From contig CALRRL020000006.1 of assembly GCA_943370565.1 (NCBI GenBank), positions 89,157 to 113,156 on the forward strand: 24,000 nucleotides of DNA, read 5' to 3'. This stretch comes from Synechococcus sp. UW140. GTDB lineage: Bacteria; Cyanobacteriota; Cyanobacteriia; PCC-6307; Cyanobiaceae. The translations under genes and the position numbers were made by a program. The notes below the pieces were generated by a model, which ran no database searches, was not told the DNA's origin, and saw only the letters and a list, made by a program, of their open reading frames with translations. Below, piece after piece: positions 5,563 to 24,000 of this stretch (position 1 is its first letter; each line of letters starts with the position of its first letter).

Positions 5563-5621
5563 AAAAAGCCCGGACGCGCCGGGCCGGGGGGTGTGAGGAG
5601 TGTGCGAGCCGAAGCCCCCAC
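5563..5621 (-). ncRNA. yfr1: Yfr1 small regulatory RNA
   Basis: The minus strand reads GUGGGGGCUUCGGCUCGCAC (stem-loop with UUCG loop), then ACUCCUCACAC, then CCCCCGGCCCGGCGCGUCCGGGCUUUUU (terminator hairpin plus U-tail). ACUCCUCACAC is the invariant single-stranded Yfr1 motif. The length is about 59 nt. A TAGTCT -10-like box lies at 5633-5628. The position between the guaB-like gene and trxA matches the known yfr1 locus in marine picocyanobacteria. Confidence 0.8.
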
Positions 5622-5678
5622 AACTTGAGACTAACGCCCCCCTCGCGGGCCGCTGGGGCCGGCCTGGGCAGCGAGCGG

Positions 5679-6842
5679 TTATTTGCCCATGCCGAGCTGC
5701 TGGGCCTTTTGGTACACCTTGCCTTCGGTGAGCAACGAGGGGGCAACCACCACTTCCACCTGTTGCATTTCCTTCAAGGTGCGGGCGCCCAGGGTGCCCA
5801 TGGACGTGCGGATGCAGCCGAGCAGGTTCTGGGTGCCGTCATCGAGGCTGGCAGGGCCGCGCAGGATTTTGGCCAGGCTGCCGGTGGTGCCCACCTTGAT
5901 GCGGGTGCCGCGGGGCAGCACCGGACTGGGGGTGGCCATCCCCCAGTGGAAGCCGCGGCCGGGGGCTTCAGCGGCCCGGGCAATCGGGGATCCAATCATC
6001 ACGGCATCGGCGCCGCAGGCCAGGCATTTGCAGATGTCACCGCCGGTGACGATGCCGCCATCGGCCACGATCGGCACATAACGGCCGCTTTCCTGGAAAT
6101 AGTCGTCGCGGGCCGCGGCGCAGTCGGCCACGGAGGTGGCCTGGGGAATGCCGATCCCGAGCACACCCCGGGAGGTGCAGGCCGCTCCCGGACCGATGCC
6201 CACCATCACGCCGGCGGCTCCCGCCCGCATCAGATCGAGGGCCACCGCATAGGTGACCGTGTTGCCGATCACCACGGGCACGCCCATGTCCCGGCAGAGG
6301 GCTGCCAGATCGAGGGACTGGCGGCCCTCCGGACCCACGTGCTCGGTGGAGACCACGGTGGCCTGCACAAAGAACAGGTCGGCACCGGCTTCGGCGATCG
6401 CCTTGCCGAAGCGCAGGGCCGCCACCGGCGTGGCACTCACGGCGGCAATGCCGCCCTGGGCCTTGATTTCGGCGATGCGGCTGCGAATCAGGTCCTCACG
6501 CACTGGGGCGCTGTAGAGCTCCTGCATCAGGGGCACGAACTCCTCCTTGCCCACCGAGGCGATCCGATCGAGCACCGGATTGGGATCGTCGTAGCGGCAC
6601 TGAACCCCTTCGAGGTTCAACACCCCCAGGGCCCCCAGCCGGGAGAGTTCCACCGCCATGCCCACATCCACCACCCCATCCATGGCGCTGGCAATGATCG
6701 GGATCTCGCGGCTGATGCCCCCCAGGCTCCAGCTGCTGTCGGTGACGTCGGGATCGACGGTGCGGCCGCCGGGCACCAGGGCAATTTCATCAATGCCATA
6801 GGCACGACGAACGGTGCGGGAGCGGCCGAGCTGAATGTCCAC
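5679..6842 (-). CDS. guaB: IMP dehydrogenase family protein (short, CBS-less GuaB-like form, 387 aa)
   Basis: RRAYGIDEIALVPG, the catalytic-loop-like GIGPGAACTSR and ADGGI..GGDI.KCLACGADAVMIG are present. I place the start at GTG 6842 (VDIQLGRS...) to give the typical length. ATG 6875 is the alternative. Confidence 0.8.
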   Translation of the reverse strand: MDIQLGRSRTVRRAYGIDEIALVPGGRTVDPDVTDSSWSLGGISREIPIIASAMDGVVDVGMAVELSRLGALGVLNLEGVQCRYDDPNPVLDRIASVGKEEFVPLMQELYSAPVREDLIRSRIAEIKAQGGIAAVSATPVAALRFGKAIAEAGADLFFVQATVVSTEHVGPEGRQSLDLAALCRDMGVPVVIGNTVTYAVALDLMRAGAAGVMVGIGPGAACTSRGVLGIGIPQATSVADCAAARDDYFQESGRYVPIVADGGIVTGGDICKCLACGADAVMIGSPIARAAEAPGRGFHWGMATPSPVLPRGTRIKVGTTGSLAKILRGPASLDDGTQNLLGCIRTSMGTLGARTLKEMQQVEVVVAPSLLTEGKVYQKAQQLGMGK

Positions 6843-9480: not shown

Positions 9481-12174
9481 ATGGCGGATCCAACCGGTCC
9501 CGGCGAATCCGACGGGCGGATCATCCAGACCGACCTGCGCAACGAGATGTCGCGCTCCTATCTGGAGTATGCGATGAGCGTGATCGTGGGCCGGGCCCTG
9601 CCCGATGCCCGCGATGGCCTCAAGCCGGTGCATCGCCGCATTCTTTATGCGATGTACGAGCTGGGCCTCACCAGTGACCGGCCCTACCGCAAATGCGCCC
9701 GGGTGGTGGGGGAAGTGCTCGGTAAGTACCACCCCCACGGCGATACGGCGGTCTACGACGCCCTGGTGCGCATGGCCCAGGACTTCTCGATGCGCATGCC
9801 CCTGATCGATGGGCATGGCAACTTCGGCTCGGTCGACAACGACCCGCCGGCAGCCATGCGCTACACCGAATCCCGGCTGCAAGCCCTCACCACCGACAGC
9901 CTGCTCGAGGACATCGAAGCCGAAACCGTCGATTTCATCGACAACTTCGATGGCTCCCAGCAGGAGCCCACCGTGATGCCGGCGCGGGTGCCCCACCTGC
10001 TGCTCAACGGCTCCTCGGGCATCGCCGTGGGGATGGCCACCAACATCCCGCCCCACAACCTCACCGAACTGATCGATGGCCTGCTGGCCCTGATCGCCAA
10101 CCCCGAGCTGGACGACCGCCAGCTGCTGGCGATCATCCCCGGCCCCGACTTCCCCACCGGCGGCCAGATCCTGGGCCGGCGCGGCATCCGCGAGGCCTAC
10201 ACCACCGGCCGGGGCTCGGTGACCATGCGCGGCGTGGCCGCGATTGAAACCGTGGAGGGCAAGGGTCGCCCCGACCGGGATGCGGTGATCATCACCGAAC
10301 TGCCCTACCAGACCAACAAGGCGGCCCTGATCGAGCGCATTGCCGAGCTCGTCAACGACAAGAAGCTCGAAGGCATTGCCGACATCCGCGACGAAAGCGA
10401 CCGCGATGGCATGCGCATCGTGATCGAACTGCGCCGGGATGCCTATCCCCAGGTTGTCTTGAACAACCTGTTCAAGCTCACCCCCCTGCAGAACAATTTC
10501 AGCGCCTACATGCTGGCGCTGGTCAACGGCGAGCCGATCCTGCTCACCCTGCGCAAGATGCTGGAGGTGTTCCTCGACTTCCGCATCGAGACGATCGAGC
10601 GGCGCACCCGCTACCTGTTGCGCAAGGCCGAGGAGCGCGACCATCTGTTGCTCGGTCTGTTGCTTGCGCTCGAGCAGCTTGATCCGATCATCGCCCTGAT
10701 CCGGGCCGCCGCCGACGCCGCCACCGCCCGCCAGCAGTTGCAGGAGCGCCATGGCCTCAGTGAGGTGCAGGCCGATGCCATCCTGCAGATGCAGCTGCGC
10801 CGCCTCACCGCCCTGGAAGCCGACAAGATCCGGCTGGAGCATGAGGATCTGGTCACCAAGATCGCCGACTACAAAGACATTCTCGGCCGGCGCGAGCGGG
10901 TGCTGGGCCTGATCGAGGAGGAGCTCCAGGCCCTGCGGGCCCGCTACGACTCACCGCGCCGCACCGAGATCCTCGATCTTGAAGGCGGCCTCGAAGACAT
11001 CGACCTGATCGCCAACGAGCGCTCGGTGGTGTTGCTCACCGAAACCGGCTACCTCAAGCGCATGCCGGTGAGCGAATTTGAAGCCACCAGCCGCGGCACC
11101 CGCGGCAAGGCGGGCACCAAGAGCCAGGGTGAAGAGGGCGTCAAGCTGTTCATCAGCTGCAACGACCACGACTCCCTGTTGCTGTTCAGCGACCGCGGCG
11201 TGGTCTATTCCGTGCCGGCCTACCGGGTGCCGATCTGCAGCCGGGCCGCCAAGGGCACGCCGATCGTGCAGTTGCTACCGATCCCGCGCGAAGAACTGAT
11301 CACCTCCCTGCTGGCAGTAGGCGGCTTCGAGGAACACGAGCAACTGGTGATGCTCACCAGCGGCGGCTACATCAAGCGCACCCGTTTATCGGCCTTCGCC
11401 AACATCCGCTCCAATGGCCTGATCGCCATCGCCCTGGAAGACGGCGATGCCCTCTGCTGGGTGCGCCAGGCCCTCCCCGGCGACAGCGTGCTGATCGGCT
11501 CCCACAAGGGCATGACCATCCACTTCCGGCTCAGCGATGAGGAGCTGCGGCCCCTGGGTCGCACCGCCCGGGGCGTGCGGGCCATGAACCTGCGGCCCGG
11601 CGATTCCCTGGTGAGCATGGATGTGCTGCCGGCCGAACTCGCCGACCAGGTGGCCAGCTCCGCCGAGGGCGAGCTGGAGGGGGAAGGGGATCTGGAGGCC
11701 GAAGGGCTGGAGGAGACGGCCGCCAGTGAGGGGCCCTGGGTGCTGGTGGCCTCGGCCAGCGGCCTGGGCAAACGGGTGCCCGTGAACCAGTTCCGCCTGC
11801 AGCGCCGCGCCGGCATGGGCCTGCGGGCGATCAAGTTCCGCCGCGAGGGTGATGCCCTGGTGGGCCTCAAGGTGCTGGGTGCCGGCGAGGAACTGCTCCT
11901 GGTGAGTGAGCGCGGCGTGATCGTGCGCATGCGCTCCGATGCCATCCCCCAGCAGTCCCGCGCCGCCACCGGCGTGCGGCTGCAGAAGCTCGACAGCGGC
12001 GACCGCCTCGCCGAAGTGGTGCTCGTGCCCCCCTCCAGCGACGAGGAGGAGGGGGCCGTTGGGGAAGGCAGCCTGGATGCGTTGCCCCTGGAGGCAACGC
12101 CTGAGGCATCCTCTGCAGCCAGCCCCGCTCCGGCGGATCAGGCCGCTGGGGCCGCCACCGACGACGACGCCTGA
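9481..12174 (+). CDS. gyrA: DNA gyrase subunit A
   Basis: [39 protein letters not shown] and AAMRYTE (active-site Tyr region) are present. The C-terminal beta-pinwheel repeats and an acidic tail follow. Confidence 0.97.
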
Positions 12175-13631: not shown

Positions 13632-14810
13632 CTAGGCGGCAACCGTCGCCCCGGCGCAGGAACTGCCCTGGCCGGCGGTGCAGCCGAAGCAGTGGTTGCC
13701 GAGGGCAATCGGCAGACCCGGCAGGGATTCGGCGTTGACCTCGGCGAGGGTGCGCGGCGCCGAGGTCCCCCCAGCCGCAAGGGGCAGGTCCAGCATCTGG
13801 TTGAAGTCGCAGTCGTGCAGCTGGCCGTCGGGGGCCACCGACAGGGTGTCGCGGCACATCAGGCCGCAGAGGGCGGCGGGATTGAAGGCCTGGGCGAGCT
13901 GGTCCAGGTAGGGGCCCACCTGGCCCTGGGTGTGAAGCTGCTGCAGGAAACGGGCGATCGGCATGTTGTTGAGGCCGATCAGCCGATCGAAGGTCACCCC
14001 CTCCCCGGCCAGGCGGCGCCGCCAGGCCGCCGTATCGCAGGCGGTGAGCTGCTGCAGGGCCTGGCCAGCTGGATTGCTCATCAAGGTGAGCACCCGATCG
14101 GGATCCCCCTGGCCGTAGCCCAGCTGGTTGAGCCGGCGCAGGGCGGTGAGCGAGCCGGCCCAAGTGCCCTCGCCCCGCTGGGCATCCGTGCCGTCCGCCT
14201 CGGGGGCCGGCAGGCTGGCGACGATCTCCACCTGGTTGTCCGCCAGGAAGGCAGCCAGGTCGGCCAGGGCCGGCAGCAACAACACGGTCAGGTTGCTGCG
14301 GTCGATCACCCGGCAGCCCTGGCGGCGGGCCGCCAGCACCAGGCGCCGGAAGGCGCCGTGCAGCTCCGGAGCGCCGCCGGTGAGGTCCACCACCTGGGGA
14401 CGCAACCGCCCGATCGCCTCCAGGCACTGCTGCACCACCGGCTCCGCCATCTGGCTGGTCCCCTGATCCGGCCCGGCATCCACGTGGCAGTGGCTGCAGC
14501 GCATGTTGCAGAGGCGCCCCAGGTTGAGTTGCAACACCCGCAGGGCTGAGCGCCGCGGCGCGGCCAGCTGGCGCCCGGCCAGGGCGGCGCCGAAGCCCGC
14601 CTGCGGCGCCAGGGCCGCCTGCAGCAACTGGCGTTGCTGCGCGGGTGCCAGGGCCTGGGGCCGCCCCGGGGCAGCGGTGGTCGGGAGGGTGGTGGTCACA
14701 GGGGCAGGGGATCGGCCAGCGGGGCCGTGATGGGACTCAAACAACTTGCTTCCGCCGCAAGGCGGGCTCTTGGGCAGGGGCGAGAAGGGCGGGGGCGCCG
14801 CGGCCTGCAT
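13632..14810 (-). CDS. Radical SAM / Cys-rich domain protein of the ArsS (arsenosugar biosynthesis) family
   Basis: The CX3CX2C cluster motif is in LNLGRLCNMRCSHCHVDAGP. A C-terminal Cys-rich tail (GNHCFGCTAGQGSSCAG) is typical of this family. The start is uncertain between ATG 14810 and GTG 14699, because a lower-GC stretch with a small hairpin lies between them. Confidence 0.75.
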   Translation of the reverse strand: MQAAAPPPFSPLPKSPPCGGSKLFESHHGPAGRSPAPVTTTLPTTAAPGRPQALAPAQQRQLLQAALAPQAGFGAALAGRQLAAPRRSALRVLQLNLGRLCNMRCSHCHVDAGPDQGTSQMAEPVVQQCLEAIGRLRPQVVDLTGGAPELHGAFRRLVLAARRQGCRVIDRSNLTVLLLPALADLAAFLADNQVEIVASLPAPEADGTDAQRGEGTWAGSLTALRRLNQLGYGQGDPDRVLTLMSNPAGQALQQLTACDTAAWRRRLAGEGVTFDRLIGLNNMPIARFLQQLHTQGQVGPYLDQLAQAFNPAALCGLMCRDTLSVAPDGQLHDCDFNQMLDLPLAAGGTSAPRTLAEVNAESLPGLPIALGNHCFGCTAGQGSSCAGATVAA

Positions 14811-14946
14811 CCCAGGGTGGTGGGCAGGCCGGCGGGACCGCAAGCCCGGCGGCCTGCCTGGCTGATGGCCAGGACTAAGGGCCAGGCCGAGCGGCCCCAG
14901 CTGCCGGCTCCAGAGCCCTTCGGCCGCCCCCGGGGCAGGGGACTGG

Positions 14947-16596
14947 CTAGGCGCCCATGGACCAGCTGGCCCAGTCGGCGGCATTCACCAGGGGGAAGAG
15001 GCCATCCTCGGCCTGGACCGCCGCCAGCCAGCCGGGGGGCGGTTCCGTGCCGGCATCGATCGCCGCCATCAGGCGCCAGTAGCGCTCCAGGTGGCGATGG
15101 ATCCGCTCCCGGGCCAGGTCGGTGGTGGTGCCGGCCCGCAGGATGAAGCTCCAATCGGAGCTCTGGGCGAGCAGCAGCTCCCGGGCCGCCTGGTGGAGCA
15201 GGTCCCGGGCCCGGGGGCTGCCAACACCCCGGTTCACCTGCTCCACCATCACGGTGGAGGCCCGGTGCCACTCCGGCACCACCCAGGCGTTGCTGTCGTT
15301 CAGCCAGTAGTTGTGGTAGCCCCCCTGGCCCCAGCTCGAGGGGGAGGGTTGGCAGACCTGCAGGGCGTCGCCGCGGCTGAGGGTGTCGCGCAGGGTCACC
15401 AGGGTGACGCCCTGGTCGGCCGCCTGGCGGAACAGGGCCTCCAGGAACTGGGGCCCTTCGTACCACCAATGGCCAAACAGCTCGGCATCAAAGGGGGCCA
15501 CCAGCAGGGGCCGCCGGGCCATGGCACCGGCCAGGCCCGCCAGCTGGGCCGCCCGACCGGCCAGGTAATCGCCGGCGTGCGCGGCGGCGAGGCCCCTGGC
15601 GGCGGCGGGGTCGTAGGGCTGCTTGCCATCGAGGGGGCACGCGTGGCCGCTGACGCGGTGCAGCTTCAGGCCCAGGGGACGGGGGCAACCGATGCCGAGG
15701 GCGGCCAGGTCCTGGGGGTCCAGGTCCCAGCCCAGGTCGCGGTGGAACTCCCGGTAGGCCGCCTGGCCCGGATAACCATCGCGGGCGCTCCACACCGGCA
15801 GGGTGGCCTCACTGTCCCGGCCGAAGAAGGCCATGCCGGCGGGCGAACAGATCGGCGCGTACACGCCGTAGCGGGGTCGGGGCAGGCCATGCAGCAGGCC
15901 ATGGCCATCGAGCACCGCGTAGCGCAGGCCGCAGGCCACCAGCAGCTGGTCAAGGCCTTCGTAGTAGGCGCATTCCGGCAGCCAGATCCCCTGGGGCCTC
16001 ACCCCCAGCAGGCGCTCGTGCTCCCGCACCGCCGTGAGCAGCTGGGCCCGCACCGCCTCGGGCCGGTTGCGCAGCAGGGGCAGGTAGCCGTGGGTGGCGG
16101 CACAGGTGAGCAGGTCAAGAACTCCCTGCTCCTGCAGGCGACGGAAGCGGGGCATCAGGTCGCCGCCGCAGGCCTGCCAGGTGGCCTGGGCGTGGTGCAA
16201 CTGCTGGGCCAGGGCGGCACTGGCCTGGGCGTAGGCCGCCGGGGCCCGCTCCAGCAACTGCAGGCGCACAGCCAGCCAGGGTGCAAAGCGCCCCGCCAAC
16301 TGGGGGCTCGCCATCAGCGAGAGCAGGGTGGGCGACAGCCCCAGGCTGAGCCGGGGCCGCTGGCGGGGATCGGCCGCTGCCGCCTCCAGGGCATCCAGCA
16401 GGGGCAGATAACACTCCAGCAGGGCCTGGAAATACCAGTCCTCCTCCAGGGAACCCGGCTCGCTGGAGAGCACATAGGGCAAATGGGCATGGAGCACCAG
16501 GGCCAGGTCCCCCCCGGCTGGTGCTCCAACGGGGCGATCGGCGGACGCAGGAGTGAAGCTGGCCTCGTCGCCGGCAGCCAAGACCCTTCCCCGCAT
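14947..16596 (-). CDS. Glycoside hydrolase family 57 protein (GH57 alpha-glucan branching/processing enzyme)
   Basis: The N-terminal GH57 signature LALVLHAHLPYV is present, with HGYLPLL, WLPECAY and a C-terminal LLLAQSSDWSFIL block. The start is set at MRGRVLAAG (ATG 16596). The tracked ORF start at 16902 would overlap the divergent NYN gene. Confidence 0.85.
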   Translation of the reverse strand: MRGRVLAAGDEASFTPASADRPVGAPAGGDLALVLHAHLPYVLSSEPGSLEEDWYFQALLECYLPLLDALEAAAADPRQRPRLSLGLSPTLLSLMASPQLAGRFAPWLAVRLQLLERAPAAYAQASAALAQQLHHAQATWQACGGDLMPRFRRLQEQGVLDLLTCAATHGYLPLLRNRPEAVRAQLLTAVREHERLLGVRPQGIWLPECAYYEGLDQLLVACGLRYAVLDGHGLLHGLPRPRYGVYAPICSPAGMAFFGRDSEATLPVWSARDGYPGQAAYREFHRDLGWDLDPQDLAALGIGCPRPLGLKLHRVSGHACPLDGKQPYDPAAARGLAAAHAGDYLAGRAAQLAGLAGAMARRPLLVAPFDAELFGHWWYEGPQFLEALFRQAADQGVTLVTLRDTLSRGDALQVCQPSPSSWGQGGYHNYWLNDSNAWVVPEWHRASTVMVEQVNRGVGSPRARDLLHQAARELLLAQSSDWSFILRAGTTTDLARERIHRHLERYWRLMAAIDAGTEPPPGWLAAVQAEDGLFPLVNAADWASWSMGA

Positions 16597-16647: not shown

Positions 16648-17184
16648 ATGCAGCTGGCCTTGGCGGTTGATGGCCACAGCATGTTTTACACCCAGCAAAA
16701 GCTGGGCTGGTTCTTCGACCCGCGCCGGCTGATGGAGCTGGCCGCATCCCAGGCGGACCTGGAGGTAGGCAGCGCCTTCTGGTACCTGGGCCTGAAGGAC
16801 AACACCGACCAGCGCCCCTTCCGCGATGCCCTCACCAGCCTGGGCTTCAGCGTGCGCACCAAGCCCCTGCGCGAATTCGGCCATGACCCGGACCAGCGCC
16901 ACTTCGCCCGGGCCAACCTGGAGGTGGAGATCGCCCTCGATCTGATGGCCGTTTCGGGCCGCACCGATGTGGTGTGGCTGCTCAGTGGCAGCCGCGACCT
17001 GGAGCGCACGGTGGAGGTGCTGCGGGCCCGGGGCCTGAAGATCGTGCTGATCAACACCGATGGCATGGTGCCGCGGGAGTTGCGCAATGCGGTGGACCGC
17101 TTCTGGGACCTGGCCAGCCTGCGGCCCCAGCTGGAGCGGTCCGAGGCCCTGCAGGCGCCGGTGTTCAGCCGCAACACCCCCTAG
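16648..17184 (+). CDS. NYN/LabA-like (PIN-related) domain protein
   Basis: [10 protein letters not shown]...[46 protein letters not shown] fits the NYN/DUF88 pattern of acidic residues on a Rossmann-like fold. Confidence 0.75.
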
Positions 17185-17221
17185 ACTGGTCCCAACTCAT
17201 ACTCATTCCGCCTTTCGTCCC

Positions 17222-18847
17222 ATGGCCCGCGATCCCAGCCGGGTATTGATCTTCGATACCACCCTGCGCGATGGGGAGCAGTCCCCAGGCGCCAGCCTCA
17301 ACCTCGAAGAGAAGCTGGCGATCGCCCAGCAGCTGGCCCGCCTCAGGGTGGACATCATCGAAGCGGGCTTCCCCTTTGCCAGCCCCGGCGATTTCAATGC
17401 CGTGCAGCGCATCGCCGCCAGCGTCGGCACGGCCGATGGCCCGGTGATCTGCGGCCTGGCCCGGGCCGCCAAGGGCGACATCAAGGCCTGCGCTGAAGCG
17501 GTGGCACCAGCGGCGCGGCGCCGCATCCACACCTTCATTGCCACCAGCGACATCCACCTCGAGCACAAGCTGCGCAAGAGCCGCGCCGAGGTGTTGCAGA
17601 TCGCCGCTGAGATGGTGGCCTATGCCCGCTCCCTCGTCGATGACGTGGAGTTTTCCTGTGAAGACGCCGGCCGCTCCGATCCCGAATTCCTCTATCCGGT
17701 GATCGAGGCGGCGATCGCCGCCGGCGCCGGCACGATCAACATCCCCGACACGGTGGGCTACACCACCCCAGCCGAATTCGGCGCCCTGATCAAAGGGATC
17801 AAGGAGAATGTGCCCAACATTGACCAGGCGGTGATCTCGGTCCATGGTCACAACGACCTGGGCCTGGCCGTGGCCAATTTCCTCGAGGCCGTCAAAAACG
17901 GCGCCCGCCAGCTCGAATGCACCATCAATGGCATCGGCGAGCGGGCCGGCAATGCCTCGCTCGAAGAATTGGTGATGGCGCTCCATGTGCGCCGCAGCTA
18001 TTTCAATCCCTTCCTGGGCCGGCCCGCCGACAGCAGCGAGCCGATCACGGGCATCCGCACCGAGGAGATCTACAAAACCTCACGGCTGGTTTCGAATCTC
18101 ACCGGCATGGCGGTGCAGCCCAACAAGGCGATCGTGGGGGCCAATGCCTTTGCCCATGAATCGGGCATTCACCAGGATGGCGTGCTCAAAAATCGCCTCA
18201 CCTACGAGATCATCGACGCCCGCACCATCGGCCTGGCCGATAACCGCATCTCCCTCGGCAAGCTCTCCGGCCGCAGTGCCTTCCGCGCCCGCCTGGAGGA
18301 GCTCGGCTACACCCTGGAACGCCAGGACCTCGACGATGCCTTCGTGCGCTTCAAAGAGTTGGCCGACCGCAAGCGCGAAATCAGCGACCGCGATCTTGAA
18401 GCGATCGTCAGCGAGCAGGTGCAGCAACAGGACGAAGCCCGCTTTAGCCTCAAGCTGGTGCAGGTGAGCACCGGCACCAACCTGCAGCCCACCGCCACGG
18501 TCACCCTGATTGATGGCGACGGCAGTGAACGCACCGAAGCGGCGATCGGCACCGGTCCGGTGGATGCGGTCTGCCAGGCCCTCAATCGCCTCGCCCAGGT
18601 GCCCAACGAGCTGGTGGAGTTTTCGGTGAAATCGGTCACCGAAGGGATTGATGCCATGGGCGAGGTCACGATCCGGCTGCGCCGCGATGGGGTGCTCTAT
18701 TCCGGCCATGCCGCCGACACCGACATCGTCGTGGCCGCTGGCCAGGCCTTTGTCAATGCCCTCAACCGGCTGGTGGCCGGCAGCCAGCGGACCCCCCTCC
18801 ATCCCCAGCTGGCGCCCCTGCCCCTGGCCGAGCTGCCGCGGCTATGA
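17222..18847 (+). CDS. leuA: 2-isopropylmalate synthase
   Basis: [40 protein letters not shown] and the C-terminal LeuA dimerisation/regulatory domain are present. The start is at MARDPSRV, and the tracked upstream extension overlaps the NYN gene. Confidence 0.95.
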
Positions 18848-19788
18848 GCAGGGCTGCGGCACCACCCTCCCACCGCCCCACCGGTCCCCGGCCGGGGGCT
18901 CCAGGCCCCGGGGACCTTGCGTCCAGGGCGGCCCAGTCGTTGGGCCCGGGTCCCCGCGGGCTTCAGGCGGCCCCCCTGGCCAGGGGCCTGCAGCTGGTGC
19001 TGCTGCTGGGGATCGCCCTGGCGATGCTGCTGCCCCTGATCTGGCTGGTGAGCACCTCCCTCAAGGGCCCGGCAGAAGACATCTTCACCAGTCCCCCAGC
19101 CCTGCTGCCCAGCCAGCCCAGCATGGAGGCCTACCTGCGCCTGTTCAGCGACAACCCGATGCTGGGGTACCTCCTCAACAGCACGCTTGTTAGCGGCCTG
19201 GCGGTGGTTGCCAACCTGCTCTTCTGCTCCCTGGCGGCCTACCCCCTGGCGCGGATGCGCTTTGCCGGCCGCGGCCTGGTGCTGGCCCTGGTGGTGGCCA
19301 CGATCCTGATCCCCTTTCAGGTGGTGATGATTCCCCTGTATCTATTGATGGTGCAGCTGGGCCTGCGCAATACCCTGCTGGCCCTGATCCTGCCCCAGGC
19401 CGCCACCGCCTTTGGCATCTTCCTGCTGCGCCAGAGTTTTGCCGGGGTGCCGGCCGAACTCGAAGAGGCGGCCCGCATCGATGGCTGCACGCCCCTGGGC
19501 GAATGGTGGAACGTGATGATTCCCGCGGCCCGGGCCGACCTGATCACCCTGGCGATGTTTGTGTTCATCGGCACCTGGAGCGATTTCCTCTGGCCCCTGG
19601 TGATCCTCGATGACCCCAAGCTCTACACCCTGCCCCTCGGCCTGCAGCAGCTGGCCAGCAGTTTCTCCCTCGACTGGAGATTGGTGGCGGCCGGTTCGGT
19701 GGTCTCGATCCTGCCGGTGCTGGCGGTGTTCATTGGCTTGCAGCGCTATATCCTTCCCAGCGCCTCAGGGGATGCCGTCAAGGGCTGA
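18844..19788 (+). CDS. Carbohydrate-type ABC transporter permease (MalG/CUT1-like)
   Basis: [10 protein letters not shown] is present, with the EAA loop [29 protein letters not shown] and about six hydrophobic segments. The ATG overlaps the leuA stop (ATGA at 18844-18847). The Pro/Arg-rich first ~40 aa make the exact start uncertain. Confidence 0.8.
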
Positions 19789-20706
19789 GTCAGCCCCCTG
19801 AGCCTGGCACCCGGAGCCGGGATGGGGGCTCCAATCCGGGCTCCCCGAGCCCAGTTCCTGCCGCAACCAACGCGCCATGGCCGTGTTGATCGCGAGCAGA
19901 TCGGCCACCGGCTGGTTGGTGAAGGGCAGGGTCTGCAGGTAGCCATCGGGGCCGAATTCCGGCGTCAGGGTGAGGGGCTGGATGGGTCCAGCCGCCTGGC
20001 GGGCGGCCTGGCGAGAGCGCTGGCTTGCGGCAAACAACCGCCAGCAGGCCAGGTGAGCCGCCAACGCCTCGCCGTGTTCCGGCGCAAAGGGATGGTTCAC
20101 CTGGGGCCCCTGGGCGTGGCCGATGCGGGCATGGATGTGGTCCACATGGGCGGCCATGGCCTGGATCGGCGCCAGCTCCGGCGTCATCAGCCGCTCCGCC
20201 ACCACGCACCAGTGGCTGAGGTCGGCCGTGAGCCGCAGGCCCGGGAAGGCCCCAAGCCAGTCGGCCATGGCCCAGGGATGGGCCAGGCTGCGGGAGCGAT
20301 GGGTTTCAAAGCTCACCGCCAGACCACTGGCCTCAGCCAAGGCGATCGCCCGGGGCCAGAAGCGTTCCTGCTGGCGCCAGCTCCAGCTGTCGCTACCGGT
20401 GATCACCGTCACCTTCAGGGGCCGCAGGCTGGGGCAGGCCTCCAGCTGCTGCTCCAGCTCGGCCAGGTGGTCGTCCACGGACGCCGCCAGGTCGGGCACG
20501 TAATCGCCACCGGTGACCAGTTCCAGCACCAGCTTCAGATCAGCCTGGCCCAGCTGGTCGGCGGCGGCGGCCAGGGGGCGCTCGCGAAGCACCGGGTGGC
20601 GCAGGTTCAGCTCCAGGCCATCGAAGCCCCGCGAGCGGGCCTGGTCGATCGCGGCCTCCAGCCGTCCGCTGAACCCCCAGAGGCTGTGGAAGAGGAGCAG
20701 GTCCAT
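19765..20706 (-). CDS. Xylose isomerase-like TIM-barrel protein (sugar phosphate isomerase/epimerase family)
   Basis: GFDGLELNL...VSFETH...ADLSHW...HIHARIG fits the pattern of the AP-endonuclease-2/xylose isomerase-like fold. The 3' end overlaps the convergent permease gene by 24 nt. Confidence 0.7.
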   Translation of the reverse strand: MDLLLFHSLWGFSGRLEAAIDQARSRGFDGLELNLRHPVLRERPLAAAADQLGQADLKLVLELVTGGDYVPDLAASVDDHLAELEQQLEACPSLRPLKVTVITGSDSWSWRQQERFWPRAIALAEASGLAVSFETHRSRSLAHPWAMADWLGAFPGLRLTADLSHWCVVAERLMTPELAPIQAMAAHVDHIHARIGHAQGPQVNHPFAPEHGEALAAHLACWRLFAASQRSRQAARQAAGPIQPLTLTPEFGPDGYLQTLPFTNQPVADLLAINTAMARWLRQELGSGSPDWSPHPGSGCQAQGADSALDGIP

Positions 20707-20825
20707 CGGCGAGGCCTGGGCAGGGGGTCTGGCTGGGGCACTGTTGGCCGGCTGCGGCGGGAGTTCGGTAACGACCGGTACAACCGGCCCCGGCCAGGGG
20801 CGAGACGATCCCGGAGCGGATAGCT

Positions 20826-20960
20826 GTTCCTAGGGTTCCGGCCCAGACCTCCCGGGCAACCGGGTGGCCTGGGTGACTGGTCCGAGAGGGACGCACCGGG
20901 CGGGCCTGCTCCAGCGGGTCTGGCCGGTGGCACGGAGGGATAAAAGCCCGGGAGACCGCC
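20826..20960 (+). promoter_or_regulatory. Guanidine-I (ykkC) riboswitch aptamer in the 5' leader of the arginase-family gene
   Basis: All conserved ykkC blocks are present in order. They are CTAGGGTTCCGG (20830-20841), CTGGTCCGAGAG (20877-20888) and CACGGAGGGATAAAAGCCCGGGAGA (20931-20955). A helix lies between the first two blocks: CCCAG/CTGGG enclosing CCCGG-GCAA-CCGGG. CACCGG/CCGGTG pairing lies before the last block. The element ends 22 nt upstream of the ATG at 20982. Confidence 0.88.
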
Positions 20961-20981
20961 CCCCACAGCCCCCCTGCCTCC

Positions 20982-22172
20982 ATGACGGACGTCCAAGACG
21001 GCTCCAGCCCCTTCGCGCGGCGCCATCCCACCGAGGGCATGGCCGCCCTGGAGAAAGAACTGGCCCTGCCCCTCACCGGCTGGCAACAGGAAGTGGACCA
21101 GGGCATCCGCTACGGCCTGGAAGCGGCCGAAAGCATCGTCGATCGGCGCATCTCCACCTTCTCCCGTGGTGAATTGCCCCATTACGCGGGCATCAACACC
21201 TTCATGAAGGCCCCCTACATCGAGGATGTGCACCGGGTCGGCGAGTTTGATGTGGCGATCGTGGGGGTTCCCCACGACAGCGGCACCACCTATCGACCCG
21301 GCACCCGCTTCGGTCCCCAGGGCATCCGCCGCATCTCCGCCCTTTACACCCCCTACAACTACGAGATGGGCGTGGATCTGCGCGAGCAGATCAAGCTTTG
21401 CGATGTCGGCGACATCTTCACGATTCCGGCCAATAACGAAAAGTCGTTTGACCAGATCTCCAAAGGCATTGCCCACGTGTTCTCCAGTGGCGCCTTCCCG
21501 ATCATCCTCGGCGGCGACCATTCGATCGGCTTCCCCACCGTGCGCGGCGTCTGCCGCCACCTGGGCGACAAGAAGGTGGGCATCATCCATTTCGATCGCC
21601 ACGTCGATACCCAGGAGATCGACCTGGACGAGCGCATGCACACCTGCCCCTGGTTCCATGCCACCAACATGGCCAATGCCCCGGCCGAAAACCTGGTGCA
21701 ACTGGGCATCGGCGGCTGGCAGGTGCCCCGCGAGGGGGTGAAGGTCTGCCGCGAACGCGGCACCAACGTGCTCACGGTCACCGACATCTGCGACATGGGC
21801 CTGGAGGCGGCCGCCCAATACGCGATTGAGCGGGCCACCGATGGCACCGATTGCGTCTACATCTCCTTCGACATCGACTGCATCGATGCTGGCTTTGTGC
21901 CAGGCACCGGCTGGCCCGAACCGGGAGGCCTGCTGCCCCGCGAAGCCCTGAAATTGCTGGAGCTGATCGTGCGCAATGTGCCGGTCTGCGGCCTCGAGAT
22001 TGTGGAAGTGTCGCCCCCCTACGACATCAGCGATATGACCTCGCTGATGGCCACCCGGGTGATCTGCGACACCATGGCCCACCTGGTGGTCAGTGGCCAG
22101 TTGCCCCGCAAGTCAGCCCCCAGCTGGCTGTCGAAGGAATGCAACATGGCCGTCGATCGCAAGTGGAGATAG
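20982..22172 (+). CDS. gdmH: Arginase/ureohydrolase-family enzyme, most likely Ni-dependent guanidine hydrolase (GdmH)
   Basis: The ureohydrolase metal motifs GGDHSIGFP, IHFDRHVD and SFDIDCID are present. There is a ~70-aa N-terminal extension before the core. The motif GTGWPEPGG has Trp where I recall agmatinases having GTGTPE. The gene is preceded by a guanidine riboswitch and followed by HypA/HypB-like genes. Confidence 0.8.
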   Translation: MTDVQDGSSPFARRHPTEGMAALEKELALPLTGWQQEVDQGIRYGLEAAESIVDRRISTFSRGELPHYAGINTFMKAPYIEDVHRVGEFDVAIVGVPHDSGTTYRPGTRFGPQGIRRISALYTPYNYEMGVDLREQIKLCDVGDIFTIPANNEKSFDQISKGIAHVFSSGAFPIILGGDHSIGFPTVRGVCRHLGDKKVGIIHFDRHVDTQEIDLDERMHTCPWFHATNMANAPAENLVQLGIGGWQVPREGVKVCRERGTNVLTVTDICDMGLEAAAQYAIERATDGTDCVYISFDIDCIDAGFVPGTGWPEPGGLLPREALKLLELIVRNVPVCGLEIVEVSPPYDISDMTSLMATRVICDTMAHLVVSGQLPRKSAPSWLSKECNMAVDRKWR

Positions 22173-22175
22173 GCC

Positions 22176-22616
22176 ATGCATGAAGTTGACATGACCAAAT
22201 GCCTGCTCCTCTCCCTGCAGGACTGGAAGCAGCAACACCATCCCCAGGTGCCAACCGTGGCCGTGGTGCATCTGCAGGTGGGGGATTTCACCTGTGTGGA
22301 GCCCGACGCCCTGGTGTTCACCTGGGGGGCCCTGGTGAGTGGCACCTGGCTGGCCGGATCGGAACTGCGCATCGAGCGAACTCCGCTGCTGGCCCGCTGC
22401 CTCCCCTGCGGGGCCAGCTACAGCCCCCTGGCGGAGCAGGCCTACCGCTCCCCCTGCTGCGACCACCCGATGGAGGAGATCCTCAGCGGCCGCGAACTGC
22501 GGATCCGCTCGATCGAGTACAGCCTGCCGGAGCCTGCGGGCGACCAGTCCAGCCCCGGATCGGCAACTCCAGGGACCCGCAAGGCCCAGGAGCTGGTGGC
22601 TGGGGCCCGGGCCTGA
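22176..22616 (+). CDS. HypA-like nickel metallochaperone (GhaA-type accessory protein)
   Basis: It has the N-terminal MHE nickel-binding start (MHEVDMTKCLL), a HypA-like fold pattern and the Cys motifs CLPC ... CCDH. It starts 3 nt after the upstream stop. Confidence 0.8.
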   Translation: MHEVDMTKCLLLSLQDWKQQHHPQVPTVAVVHLQVGDFTCVEPDALVFTWGALVSGTWLAGSELRIERTPLLARCLPCGASYSPLAEQAYRSPCCDHPMEEILSGRELRIRSIEYSLPEPAGDQSSPGSATPGTRKAQELVAGARA

Positions 22617-22780
22617 GTCCAAGCCTGAGCGAGGGGCCATCTGCTGCAATCCCGCTCCAGCCAGGCGGCGCCACTGAGCCAAGCAATCAAGCGCATCAAG
22701 GCCACTCCCTAGCTCGCGGTTGAGGCCATTGCTGGTTTCTTGATTGCCATCCCATTTGACCCTGATTTGCCTGAACTGCC

Positions 22781-23512
22781 ATGCACATGCCCCTAGAAGA
22801 CACCCTTGGCCTCAATTTATTGGCGGCCAACCAACATCAAGCCGAACACAACCGCGAGCATTTTGATGCCTGGAGATTGCTCTGTCTCAATGTGATGAGC
22901 AGCCCGGGGGCGGGCAAAACCTCCCTGCTGGAGCGCAGCCTCGCCCAACTCTCCGAGGAGTTTGCGATGGCGGTGCTTGAAGGGGACATGACCACCCAGC
23001 TCGATGCCGAACGCCTGGAGGCGGTGGGGGTGCCGGTGGTGCCGATCACCACGGGCCGGGCCTGTCACCTCGATGCGGCGATGGTGAGCGGCGGCCTCAA
23101 GCTGCTGGGCCAGCGCCTCGATCCCGCCAGCCTGGATCTGCTGTGGGTGGAAAACGTGGGCAACCTGGTCTGCCCGGCCGAATTCGAGGTCGGCGAACAC
23201 AACAAGGTGGCCCTGCTCAGTGTCACCGAAGGCGAGGACAAGCCCCTCAAGTATCCGGTGATGTTCCGCGAAGCCGATTGCGTGCTGATCACCAAGATTG
23301 ATTTGCTTCCCTATCTGCCGGTGGATGTGGATCGCATTGAAGCCCACATCCGCCAGGTCAATCCCCGCTGCAGCGTGATCCGGGTGTCGGCCAGCAGCGG
23401 TGCCGGCCTGGACAGCTGGCATGCCTGGTTGCGGGCCAGCCATGCCGCCCAGTGCCCGCGCCCCGTTGGGGCATCCCCCCGCTCCGCCCACCCCACCCTG
23501 GTGAACGCATGA
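22781..23512 (+). CDS. HypB-like nickel-dependent GTPase (GhaB-type accessory protein)
   Basis: The P-loop [11 protein letters not shown], the [12 protein letters not shown] metal/switch motif and the guanine-specificity motif TKIDLLP are present. Confidence 0.85.
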
Positions 23513-24000
23513 GTAACCCCGACTGGTCCCAGATCAGAGCCGAGCTGGAGCAGAAGGGCGTGCGCTACGCCCTGGCCAGCTTTGTCGATCTGCACGGCAT
23601 GACCAAGGCCAAGGCCGTGCCTTTAGCCCACCTGGGCCAGATGGCCCGGGGCTCGGAACTGTTCACCGGCGCCGCCCTCGATGGTGTGCCCCAGGAGGTG
23701 AGCGATGACGAGGTGGCGGCCCTGCCCGACCCTGCCAGCCTGACGATTTTGCCCTGGCAACGGGAGGTGGCCTGGTTCGCCAGCGACCTGCAGCTGCGCG
23801 GCGAGCCGTTTGCCGCCTGCAGCCGCAACGTGCTGCACCGGGTGCGGGCCGAAGCCGCCGCCATGGGCTATCGCTTCAACCTCGGCATCGAAACGGAATT
23901 CTTCGTGCTGAAGCGCAATGGCGCCGGGGACCTGGTGCCCTACAGCGAACGCGACACCCTGGATAAGCCCGCCTATGACGTGCGCGGCCTGCTCGACAAC
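23509..24000 (+). CDS. Glutamine synthetase family protein (GlnA/PuuA-like), 5' part only; continues beyond the window
   Basis: An open frame runs from ATG 23509 to the window edge, so it is absent from the ORF track. The N-terminal GS beta-grasp pattern is present ([22 protein letters not shown]...[12 protein letters not shown]), followed by GIETEFFV. The ATG overlaps the HypB-like stop (ATGA). Confidence 0.8.

Follow-up and report, generated by a model that had tools for sequence, protein, structure and literature searches.

The 24,000-nt stretch of contig CALRRL020000006.1 considered here (hereafter, the window) very probably harbors a riboswitch-controlled operon for guanidine assimilation, in which the hydrolase GdmH would be loaded with nickel by the HypA-like and HypB-like proteins GhaA and GhaB, and its synthesis would be switched on by guanidine at the level of translation. 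By sequence, the hydrolase is a clear ortholog of the characterized guanidine hydrolase. The system is already known in this clade, and the locus represents a picocyanobacterial copy of the published guanidine-breakdown operon. Still, public annotation keeps naming these genes agmatinase, HypA, and HypB, and hence misassigns a nitrogen-assimilation trait of abundant aquatic picocyanobacteria to polyamine and hydrogen metabolism.

Open reading frames (ORFs) were collected over the whole window, and Rfam as well as Pfam/NCBIfam models were scored on it (Table 1). The hydrolase was compared against all PDB sequences and aligned with Synechocystis Sll1077, the guanidinase 9FEK, and E. coli SpeB (the four-way alignment below). 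A scan of relatives, with one genome per species, returned more than 588 loci with a relative of the hydrolase; the best 80 of them, spanning distant cyanobacteria and including many Prochlorococcus genomes, were compared for gene order. The nearest relatives, the loci L001 and L002, share 98% GdmH identity with the window, and the genomes of the nearest relatives (lake or brackish-water picocyanobacteria) carry the labels Synechococcus sp. UW140 or uncultured Synechococcus, which places the source of the window among the picocyanobacteria, of the Cyanobium/Synechococcus type. A search of public assemblies for the exact hydrolase sequence gave no match.

Table 1. Features of the guanidine locus and its immediate neighbors, in window coordinates
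Feature	Position	Strand	Support
Xylose-isomerase-like TIM-barrel protein, divergent	19765-20706	-	Pfam AP_endonuc_2, 33.7 bits
NtcA-box-like GTAACGACCGGTAC (GTA-N8-TAC), tentative	20768-20781	+	pattern match
Guanidine-I (ykkC subtype 1) riboswitch aptamer	20819-20956	+	RF00442, 77.8 bits, E 1.5e-12, full model 1-107
C-rich linker from aptamer to start codon, 25 nt; putative translational expression platform	20957-20981	+	
gdmH, arginase/ureohydrolase superfamily, 396 aa	20982-22172	+	Pfam Arginase, E 1.6e-77
ghaA, HypA-like Ni metallochaperone, 146 aa	22176-22616	+	Pfam HypA, E 1.5e-24, 86.6 bits
ghaA-ghaB spacer, 164 nt	22617-22780	.	lineage-specific
ghaB, HypB-like Ni-binding GTPase, 243 aa	22781-23512	+	TIGR00073 HypB, 281 bits
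GmaS-type glutamate-amine ligase, N-terminal 164 codons, runs off the window	23509-24000	+	Pfam Gln-synt_C and Gln-synt_N

The hydrolase and its putative nickel chaperones

The top PDB match of the hydrolase is Synechocystis Sll1077/GdmH (7ESR/7OI1; E 4.8e-232, 773.6 bits); its residues 9-396 align nearly end to end with residues 7-392 of 7ESR, and the identity amounts to 85.0% over 386 positions of the four-way alignment. The guanidinase of Nitrospira inopinata (9FEK) comes second with 577 bits and 64.6% identity. E. coli SpeB shares 33.0% identity and scores 127 bits, and the proclavaminate amidinohydrolase, guanidinobutyrase, metformin hydrolase subunits, and true agmatinases attain just 125-170 bits (for characterized agmatinases, 125-135 bits versus 773 bits for GdmH).

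In the N. inopinata guanidinase, the residues Thr105, His222, Trp313, and Glu344 are thought to be important for guanidine catalysis, the Synechocystis counterpart of the signature Trp being Trp305 (PMC11410670). All four are present in the hydrolase of the window as T103, H220, W311, and E342, whereas the same columns are occupied in SpeB by Ser, Asn, Thr, and Glu. The pocket motif reads GTGWP and not GTGTP as in agmatinases. The metal-ligand motifs GGDHS, HFDRHVD, and SFDIDCID are identical in the hydrolase, Sll1077, and 9FEK; the arginase fold and the metal-ligand motifs of the family are also common to E. coli SpeB (7LOL), a Mn enzyme acting on agmatine. Relative to SpeB, the hydrolase bears an N-terminal extension of ca. 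55-60 residues, which is also found in Sll1077, and the Pfam domain begins at residue 90; an N-terminal loop is a described feature of GdmH (PMC10927577). Overall, the hydrolase and Sll1077 have the same N- and C-terminal extensions, pocket, and metal residues. The N. inopinata enzyme, a member of the same fold family, is extended still more at its N-terminus and does not have the C-terminal tail seen in the hydrolase of the window; unlike the window locus, the genome of this organism is devoid of identifiable Ni chaperones (PMC11410670).

The characterized Synechocystis enzyme breaks down guanidine, and not agmatine, to urea and ammonium (Wang 2021, PMC8390497). The enzyme depends on Ni2+ and needs GhaA and GhaB to become active (Funck 2022, Nature 603:515, as cited in PMC11271267, PMC10927577, and PMC12704784).

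Counterparts of both accessory proteins are encoded immediately downstream of gdmH, with just 3 nt between its stop codon and ghaA. The HypA-like protein retains the N-terminal MHE (MHEVDMTK) and the first CxxC; its second zinc motif is SPCC, so four Cys are present. In the aligned HypA-like homologs of Synechococcus, Cyanobium, and Prochlorococcus, this motif (residues 92-97 region) is invariably SPCC, not CPxC, and CPxC is kept in the Leptolyngbya-type homologs. The C-terminal tail (ca. residues 118-146) is not conserved and varies both in length and in sequence. A phmmer search with this protein detected no solved relative. The nearest solved structures of the HypB-like protein are archaeal and Helicobacter HypB (2WSM, 2HF8, and 4LPS). 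It displays the P-loop GAGKT, the CH motif (RACHLD), the Cys of NVGNLVCP, and TKID, and it aligns with 2WSM and 2HF8 across GxGKT, CHLDA, and ENVGNLVCP.

In 75 of the 80 best loci, including those of Prochlorococcus, a genus not known to possess hydrogenases, the hydrolase gene is immediately followed by the HypA-like and HypB-like genes, and in these loci the gap between gdmH and the HypA-like gene is 3-6 nt. Three of the five exceptions are contigs ending just past gdmH. In the Leptolyngbya-type loci, the syntenic homologs are 46-49% (HypA) and 61-64% (HypB) identical to the proteins of the window. The role of the pair in the Ni loading of GdmH would be the same as that shown in Synechocystis, from which it is inferred.

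The 164-nt spacer between ghaA and ghaB is common only to the window, L001, and L002, and it is 2-60 nt long in other relatives. In the alignment of these three loci, its conservation is lower than that of the coding sequence on either side, and neither promoter-like nor terminator-like sites were found in it. Hence, the possibility of a conserved element at this place was rejected, and the spacer is regarded as lineage-specific.

The initial annotation of this stretch had read the three genes as a guanidine hydrolase, rather than an agmatinase, followed by its nickel-loading chaperones. Its points of departure are borne out: the arginase-family, HypA-like, and HypB-like ORFs are consecutive according to Pfam and TIGR00073, the alignment recovers the long N-terminal extension shared with Sll1077 and absent from SpeB, and the Trp of GTGWPEPGG, said to replace the Thr of agmatinases, corresponds to W311 in the column of the SpeB GTGTP motif. 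The choice of substrate agrees with the identities and with the four signature residues given above. The expectation that homology-based annotation would mislabel the genes turned out to be correct as well, since the hydrolase passes an agmatinase model (TIGR01230, see below) and the named database homologs of the HypA-like protein among the 120 hits listed, all of them picocyanobacterial, are without exception labelled hydrogenase HypA (one as HypA2).

Riboswitch, leader, and the proposed mode of control

With 77.8 bits, the aptamer upstream of gdmH clears the RF00442 gathering score of 63 bits, in line with the guanidine riboswitch reported for this locus by the initial annotation. The same aptamer precedes gdmH in five of the seven relatives scanned with Rfam. 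In Synechocystis, guanidine is a ligand of the RF00442 element (Kd ~58 uM), and the control by the riboswitch and NtcA has been validated (PMC12704784, 2025 PNAS).

In the usual expression platform of Guanidine-I riboswitches, the 3' end of the aptamer overlaps with an intrinsic terminator. This arrangement does not occur in the window: no plus-strand terminator was found at the leader, and the linker is free of a T-run. Two terminator-like sites on the minus strand (20949-20974) were discarded as artefacts, being the reverse complement of the AAAAGCCC segment of the aptamer, and no minus-strand gene ends there. In the ensemble fold of the unliganded leader, positions 20969-20978 of the linker pair with the conserved aptamer segment GGCACGGAGGG at 20929-20939 (p ~0.6-0.7). 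The comparison of 52 aptamer-bearing picocyanobacterial leaders yielded 48 distinct linkers, 21-37 nt long and never with a T-run. Complementarity of the linker to the CACGGAGGGA segment of the aptamer exceeded that of composition-matched shuffles in 83% of these phylogenetically related linkers (mean z = -1.6), and the linkers of different clades use different complementary words (CCUCCGUG, CCGUGCC, and CCCCCUGCC). In contrast, the Leptolyngbya-type loci (L072-L078) feature a classical terminator hairpin with CUCCCGGGCUUUUU at its end, and their ATG lies 60-110 nt farther away. Taken together, the lack of a plus-strand terminator, the short linkers, the predicted alternative pairing, and the contrast with Leptolyngbya point to a translational platform. 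The picocyanobacterial Guanidine-I riboswitch devoid of a terminator probably acts on translation, and the comparison suggests that the expression platform switched from the transcriptional to the translational type between the Leptolyngbya-type and the picocyanobacterial loci.

As regards the promoter, no sigma-70-like promoter was found upstream of gdmH. The GTAN8TAC pattern listed in Table 1 is the sole match in the 24-kb window, with 0.14 expected by chance, and a class II NtcA-type transcription start can tentatively be placed at ~20816, just ahead of the aptamer.

The following sequence of events can be envisaged. Transcription would start at ~20816 from a promoter possibly activated by NtcA, and the leader would fold into the guanidine-I aptamer. 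Without the ligand, the linker would pair with the aptamer and occlude the start region; guanidine binding would keep the conserved ACGGAGGG segment locked within the aptamer and hence release the C-rich linker together with the start codon, so that translation, and not termination, would be under control. GdmH, presumably a hexamer of the arginase fold with a dinuclear metal center, would convert guanidine into urea and ammonium, as shown for the Synechocystis enzyme, in a narrow pocket likely shaped by T103, H220, W311, E342, and the N-terminal extension. GhaA, with its MHE nickel site and Cys4 zinc site, and GhaB, a GTPase with a CH...C metal site, are expected to load Ni2+ into the hydrolase. 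Judging by the near-identical relative, the downstream GmaS-type ligase, GimABC-like importer, and Rieske oxygenase would join the operon.

Several observations speak against parts of this account. The HypA-like protein stays under the cut-off of TIGR00100 (81.4 vs 88.1 bits), and its second Cys motif is non-canonical; the putative orthology of GhaA and GhaB to Sll1078 and Sll1079 is based on synteny and motifs, as the likely guanidine specificity and Ni dependence of the hydrolase are based on orthology. Concerning the translational model, the linker of the window itself is not individually above shuffles (z = -0.56), and the pooled p-value of the 48 linkers is inflated by their relatedness by descent. 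Finally, a strict NtcA box is present in just 4 of the 52 related leaders.

Variation of the leader was also recorded among the relatives. In Synechococcus sp. MIT S9452 (L037, ~9900-10000), a degenerate aptamer core, CATCGGTGGAA in place of CACGGAGGGA, falls below the Rfam threshold. The sole Prochlorococcus locus scanned with Rfam (L054) gave no aptamer match. In none of the Prochlorococcus loci (L053-L071) do the conserved core words of the aptamer occur upstream of gdmH, although gdmH-hypA-hypB, the transporter, and the Rieske gene are retained there. A marine Synechococcus locus (L022) carries a Glutamine-II riboswitch (RF01704, 72.8 bits, 5638-5699, plus strand) ~4 kb upstream of the guanidine cluster.

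Relation to published systems and alternative readings

The locus repeats the order riboswitch-gdmH(sll1077)-ghaA(sll1078)-ghaB(sll1079) of the Synechocystis PCC 6803 operon, as the initial annotation had stated, and an SsuA/TauABC-like ABC importer resembling Synechocystis gimABC is located downstream in the near-identical L001. In Synechocystis, gdmH, ghaA, and ghaB are transcribed as a single unit controlled by NtcA, and guanidine is taken up through GimABC; gdmH is also frequent in marine Synechococcus (PMC12704784). The differences from Synechocystis comprise the aptamer lacking a following terminator, with the start codon just 25 nt on (a transcriptional ON switch is suggested for Synechocystis in PMC12704784), the GmaS-type ligase inserted between ghaB and the transporter, the attached Rieske oxygenase and TIM-barrel genes, and SPCC in place of CPxC in GhaA. 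The metformin hydrolases MfmAB/MetCaCb are likewise Ni-dependent members of the ureohydrolase superfamily and feature N-terminal loops and dedicated adjacent HypA/HypB (PMC10927577, PMC11271267); they are only distant relatives (~140-150 bits), form heteromers, and act on another substrate.

The reading of the trio as a Ni-dependent guanidine hydrolase with its own chaperones is supported, and its novelty is not, since Dore et al. (ISME J 2023; 10.1101/2022.08.17.504260; PMC10119275) already had it for Synechococcus and Cyanobium. Their 'guanidinase' cluster SynCAG_001/ProCAG_004 of marine Synechococcus, Cyanobium, and Prochlorococcus comprises the same ykkC riboswitch, speB2 (the sll1077 ortholog), hypA and hypB (proposed to insert Ni), TauABC-like transporter, and Rieske protein, with the same reinterpretation of the genes. 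The text consulted mentions neither a GmaS-type ligase nor the TIM-barrel gene nor the type of the expression platform. Accordingly, guanidine as a nitrogen source, the arginase-fold Ni enzyme together with its dedicated chaperones, and control by the riboswitch and by NtcA are all published, and the possible additions are the terminator-less riboswitch platform, the presence of a GmaS-type ligase in the operon, and the SPCC motif of GhaA.

The least improbable of the alternatives concerns the substrate range, which in this lineage might embrace substituted guanidines such as methylguanidine; GdmH would then release an alkylamine along with urea, and the ligase would capture the amine. This view stems from the gene whose ATG overlaps the ghaB stop codon (ATGA). 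Its fragment within the window is 91% identical to the full-length ortholog in L001 (12532-13881). The latter passes the NCBIfam model 'type III glutamate-ammonia ligase', and its best solved relatives are the glutamate-methylamine ligases 9QUR (399 bits) and RhGmaS 7CQL (331 bits), true glutamine synthetases (GS) scoring <=275 bits. The ligase is 43-44% identical to two characterized glutamate-methylamine ligases. It lacks the ammonium-site residues of GS. Neither Asp50 nor Ser53 of the E. coli enzyme is conserved, its Tyr179 loop and Glu327 flap are missing too, and the GmaS-type SGxTW insertion is present in their stead (diagnostic residues according to PMC7948447); the Thr at the position of Asp50 is visible within the window (ELFTGAAL). 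By its solved relatives and these residues, the ghaB-coupled gene looks like a GmaS-type ligase and not like a classical glutamine synthetase. Among 52 alpha-cyanobacterial loci, 27 have a GmaS-like gene next after ghaB; in Halomicronema (L078), such a gene sits between ghaA and ghaB, and a neighboring 'GS' is mentioned for Synechococcus WH8020 (PMC12704784). Past the ligase, L001 encodes an SsuA-like binding protein, a permease, an ATPase, and then a Rieske oxygenase closing the cluster, whose weak similarity to N-demethylating oxygenases would also fit substituted guanidines.

Nevertheless, GdmH of the window has the same pocket residues as its guanidine-specific counterpart in Synechocystis, the Rieske gene occurs also in loci lacking a GmaS-like gene, and RhGmaS accepts ammonium too, albeit poorly (PMC7948447). 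Moreover, the guanidine-I riboswitch is very highly selective for its substrate, and other guanidino metabolites are not recognized (PMC11410670). The broader substrate range is hence considered unlikely. Capture of amines from substituted guanidines by the extra genes is possible, and it should be viewed as speculative. Somewhat less doubtful, though still improbable, is the wider proposition that the operon of Cyanobium-type picocyanobacteria exceeds the published GdmH/GhaAB/GimABC module by combining a Shine-Dalgarno-independent occlusion of the start site, in place of the classical terminator, with an undescribed GmaS/Rieske/TIM-barrel branch that would capture the amine from (substituted) guanidines by gamma-glutamylation and not via ordinary GS.

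According to another reading, the HypA-like and HypB-like proteins serve a Ni enzyme encoded elsewhere (urease, Ni-SOD, or hydrogenase) and merely adjoin the hydrolase. HypA and HypB of Helicobacter pylori mature urease too, and urea, the product of GdmH, needs a Ni-urease; furthermore, the view is limited to a 24-kb window of the genome. What decides against this reading is the tight placement of the pair behind gdmH in 75 of the 80 loci, with the 3-6 nt gap kept in distant cyanobacteria including Prochlorococcus, along with the evidence from Synechocystis, where the homologous pair shares a transcript with gdmH and GdmH cannot be activated without it (PMC12704784, PMC11271267), and the dedicated HypAB of metformin hydrolases from the same superfamily (PMC10927577). 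It was rejected on the synteny and the Synechocystis evidence as very unlikely, and GhaA and GhaB are retained as the probable chaperones of GdmH.

The assignment of the hydrolase to genuine Mn-dependent SpeB agmatinases of polyamine synthesis, favored by the narrow pass of the agmatinase equivalog TIGR01230 (179.5 vs the cut-off of 174.3 bits) and by the metal ligands common with SpeB, has next to no probability left and was rejected given the 33% identity to SpeB vs 85% to GdmH, the failure of the stricter agmatinase model PRK02190 (NF002564; 209.9 vs 302 bits), the SpeB Thr and Asn at the positions of W311 and H220, the guanidine riboswitch upstream, and the inability of Sll1077 to degrade agmatine (PMC8390497).

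Other features of the window

The TIM-barrel gene, for whose product no solved relative was found by sequence, has an ortholog in most alpha-cyanobacterial loci, either upstream and divergent or convergent at the distal end after the Rieske gene.

Pfam scans of the long ORFs over the 24 kb other than the 595-aa one at 17060-18847 revealed no hydrogenase gene, which agrees with the initial annotation. This 595-aa ORF is read, from its sequence and the conserved neighbor in L001 and L002, as a likely LeuA (2-isopropylmalate synthase). Apart from the TIM barrel, Pfam assigned the other long ORFs to a beta-lactamase-like protein, SpoU methylase, cytochrome c, IMPDH/GMP reductase, CAAD protein, HcyBio, GyrA, lycopene cyclase, radical-SAM/DUF3641 protein, GH57, and ABC permease.

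The cyanobacterial small RNA Yfr1 (RF01116, 65.8 bits) is located on the minus strand at 5565-5621 and identifies the source of the window as a cyanobacterium. The radical-SAM protein with the C-terminal DUF3641 domain is encoded on the same strand at 13632-14984, a domain combination reminiscent of ArsS-type enzymes of arsenosugar synthesis.

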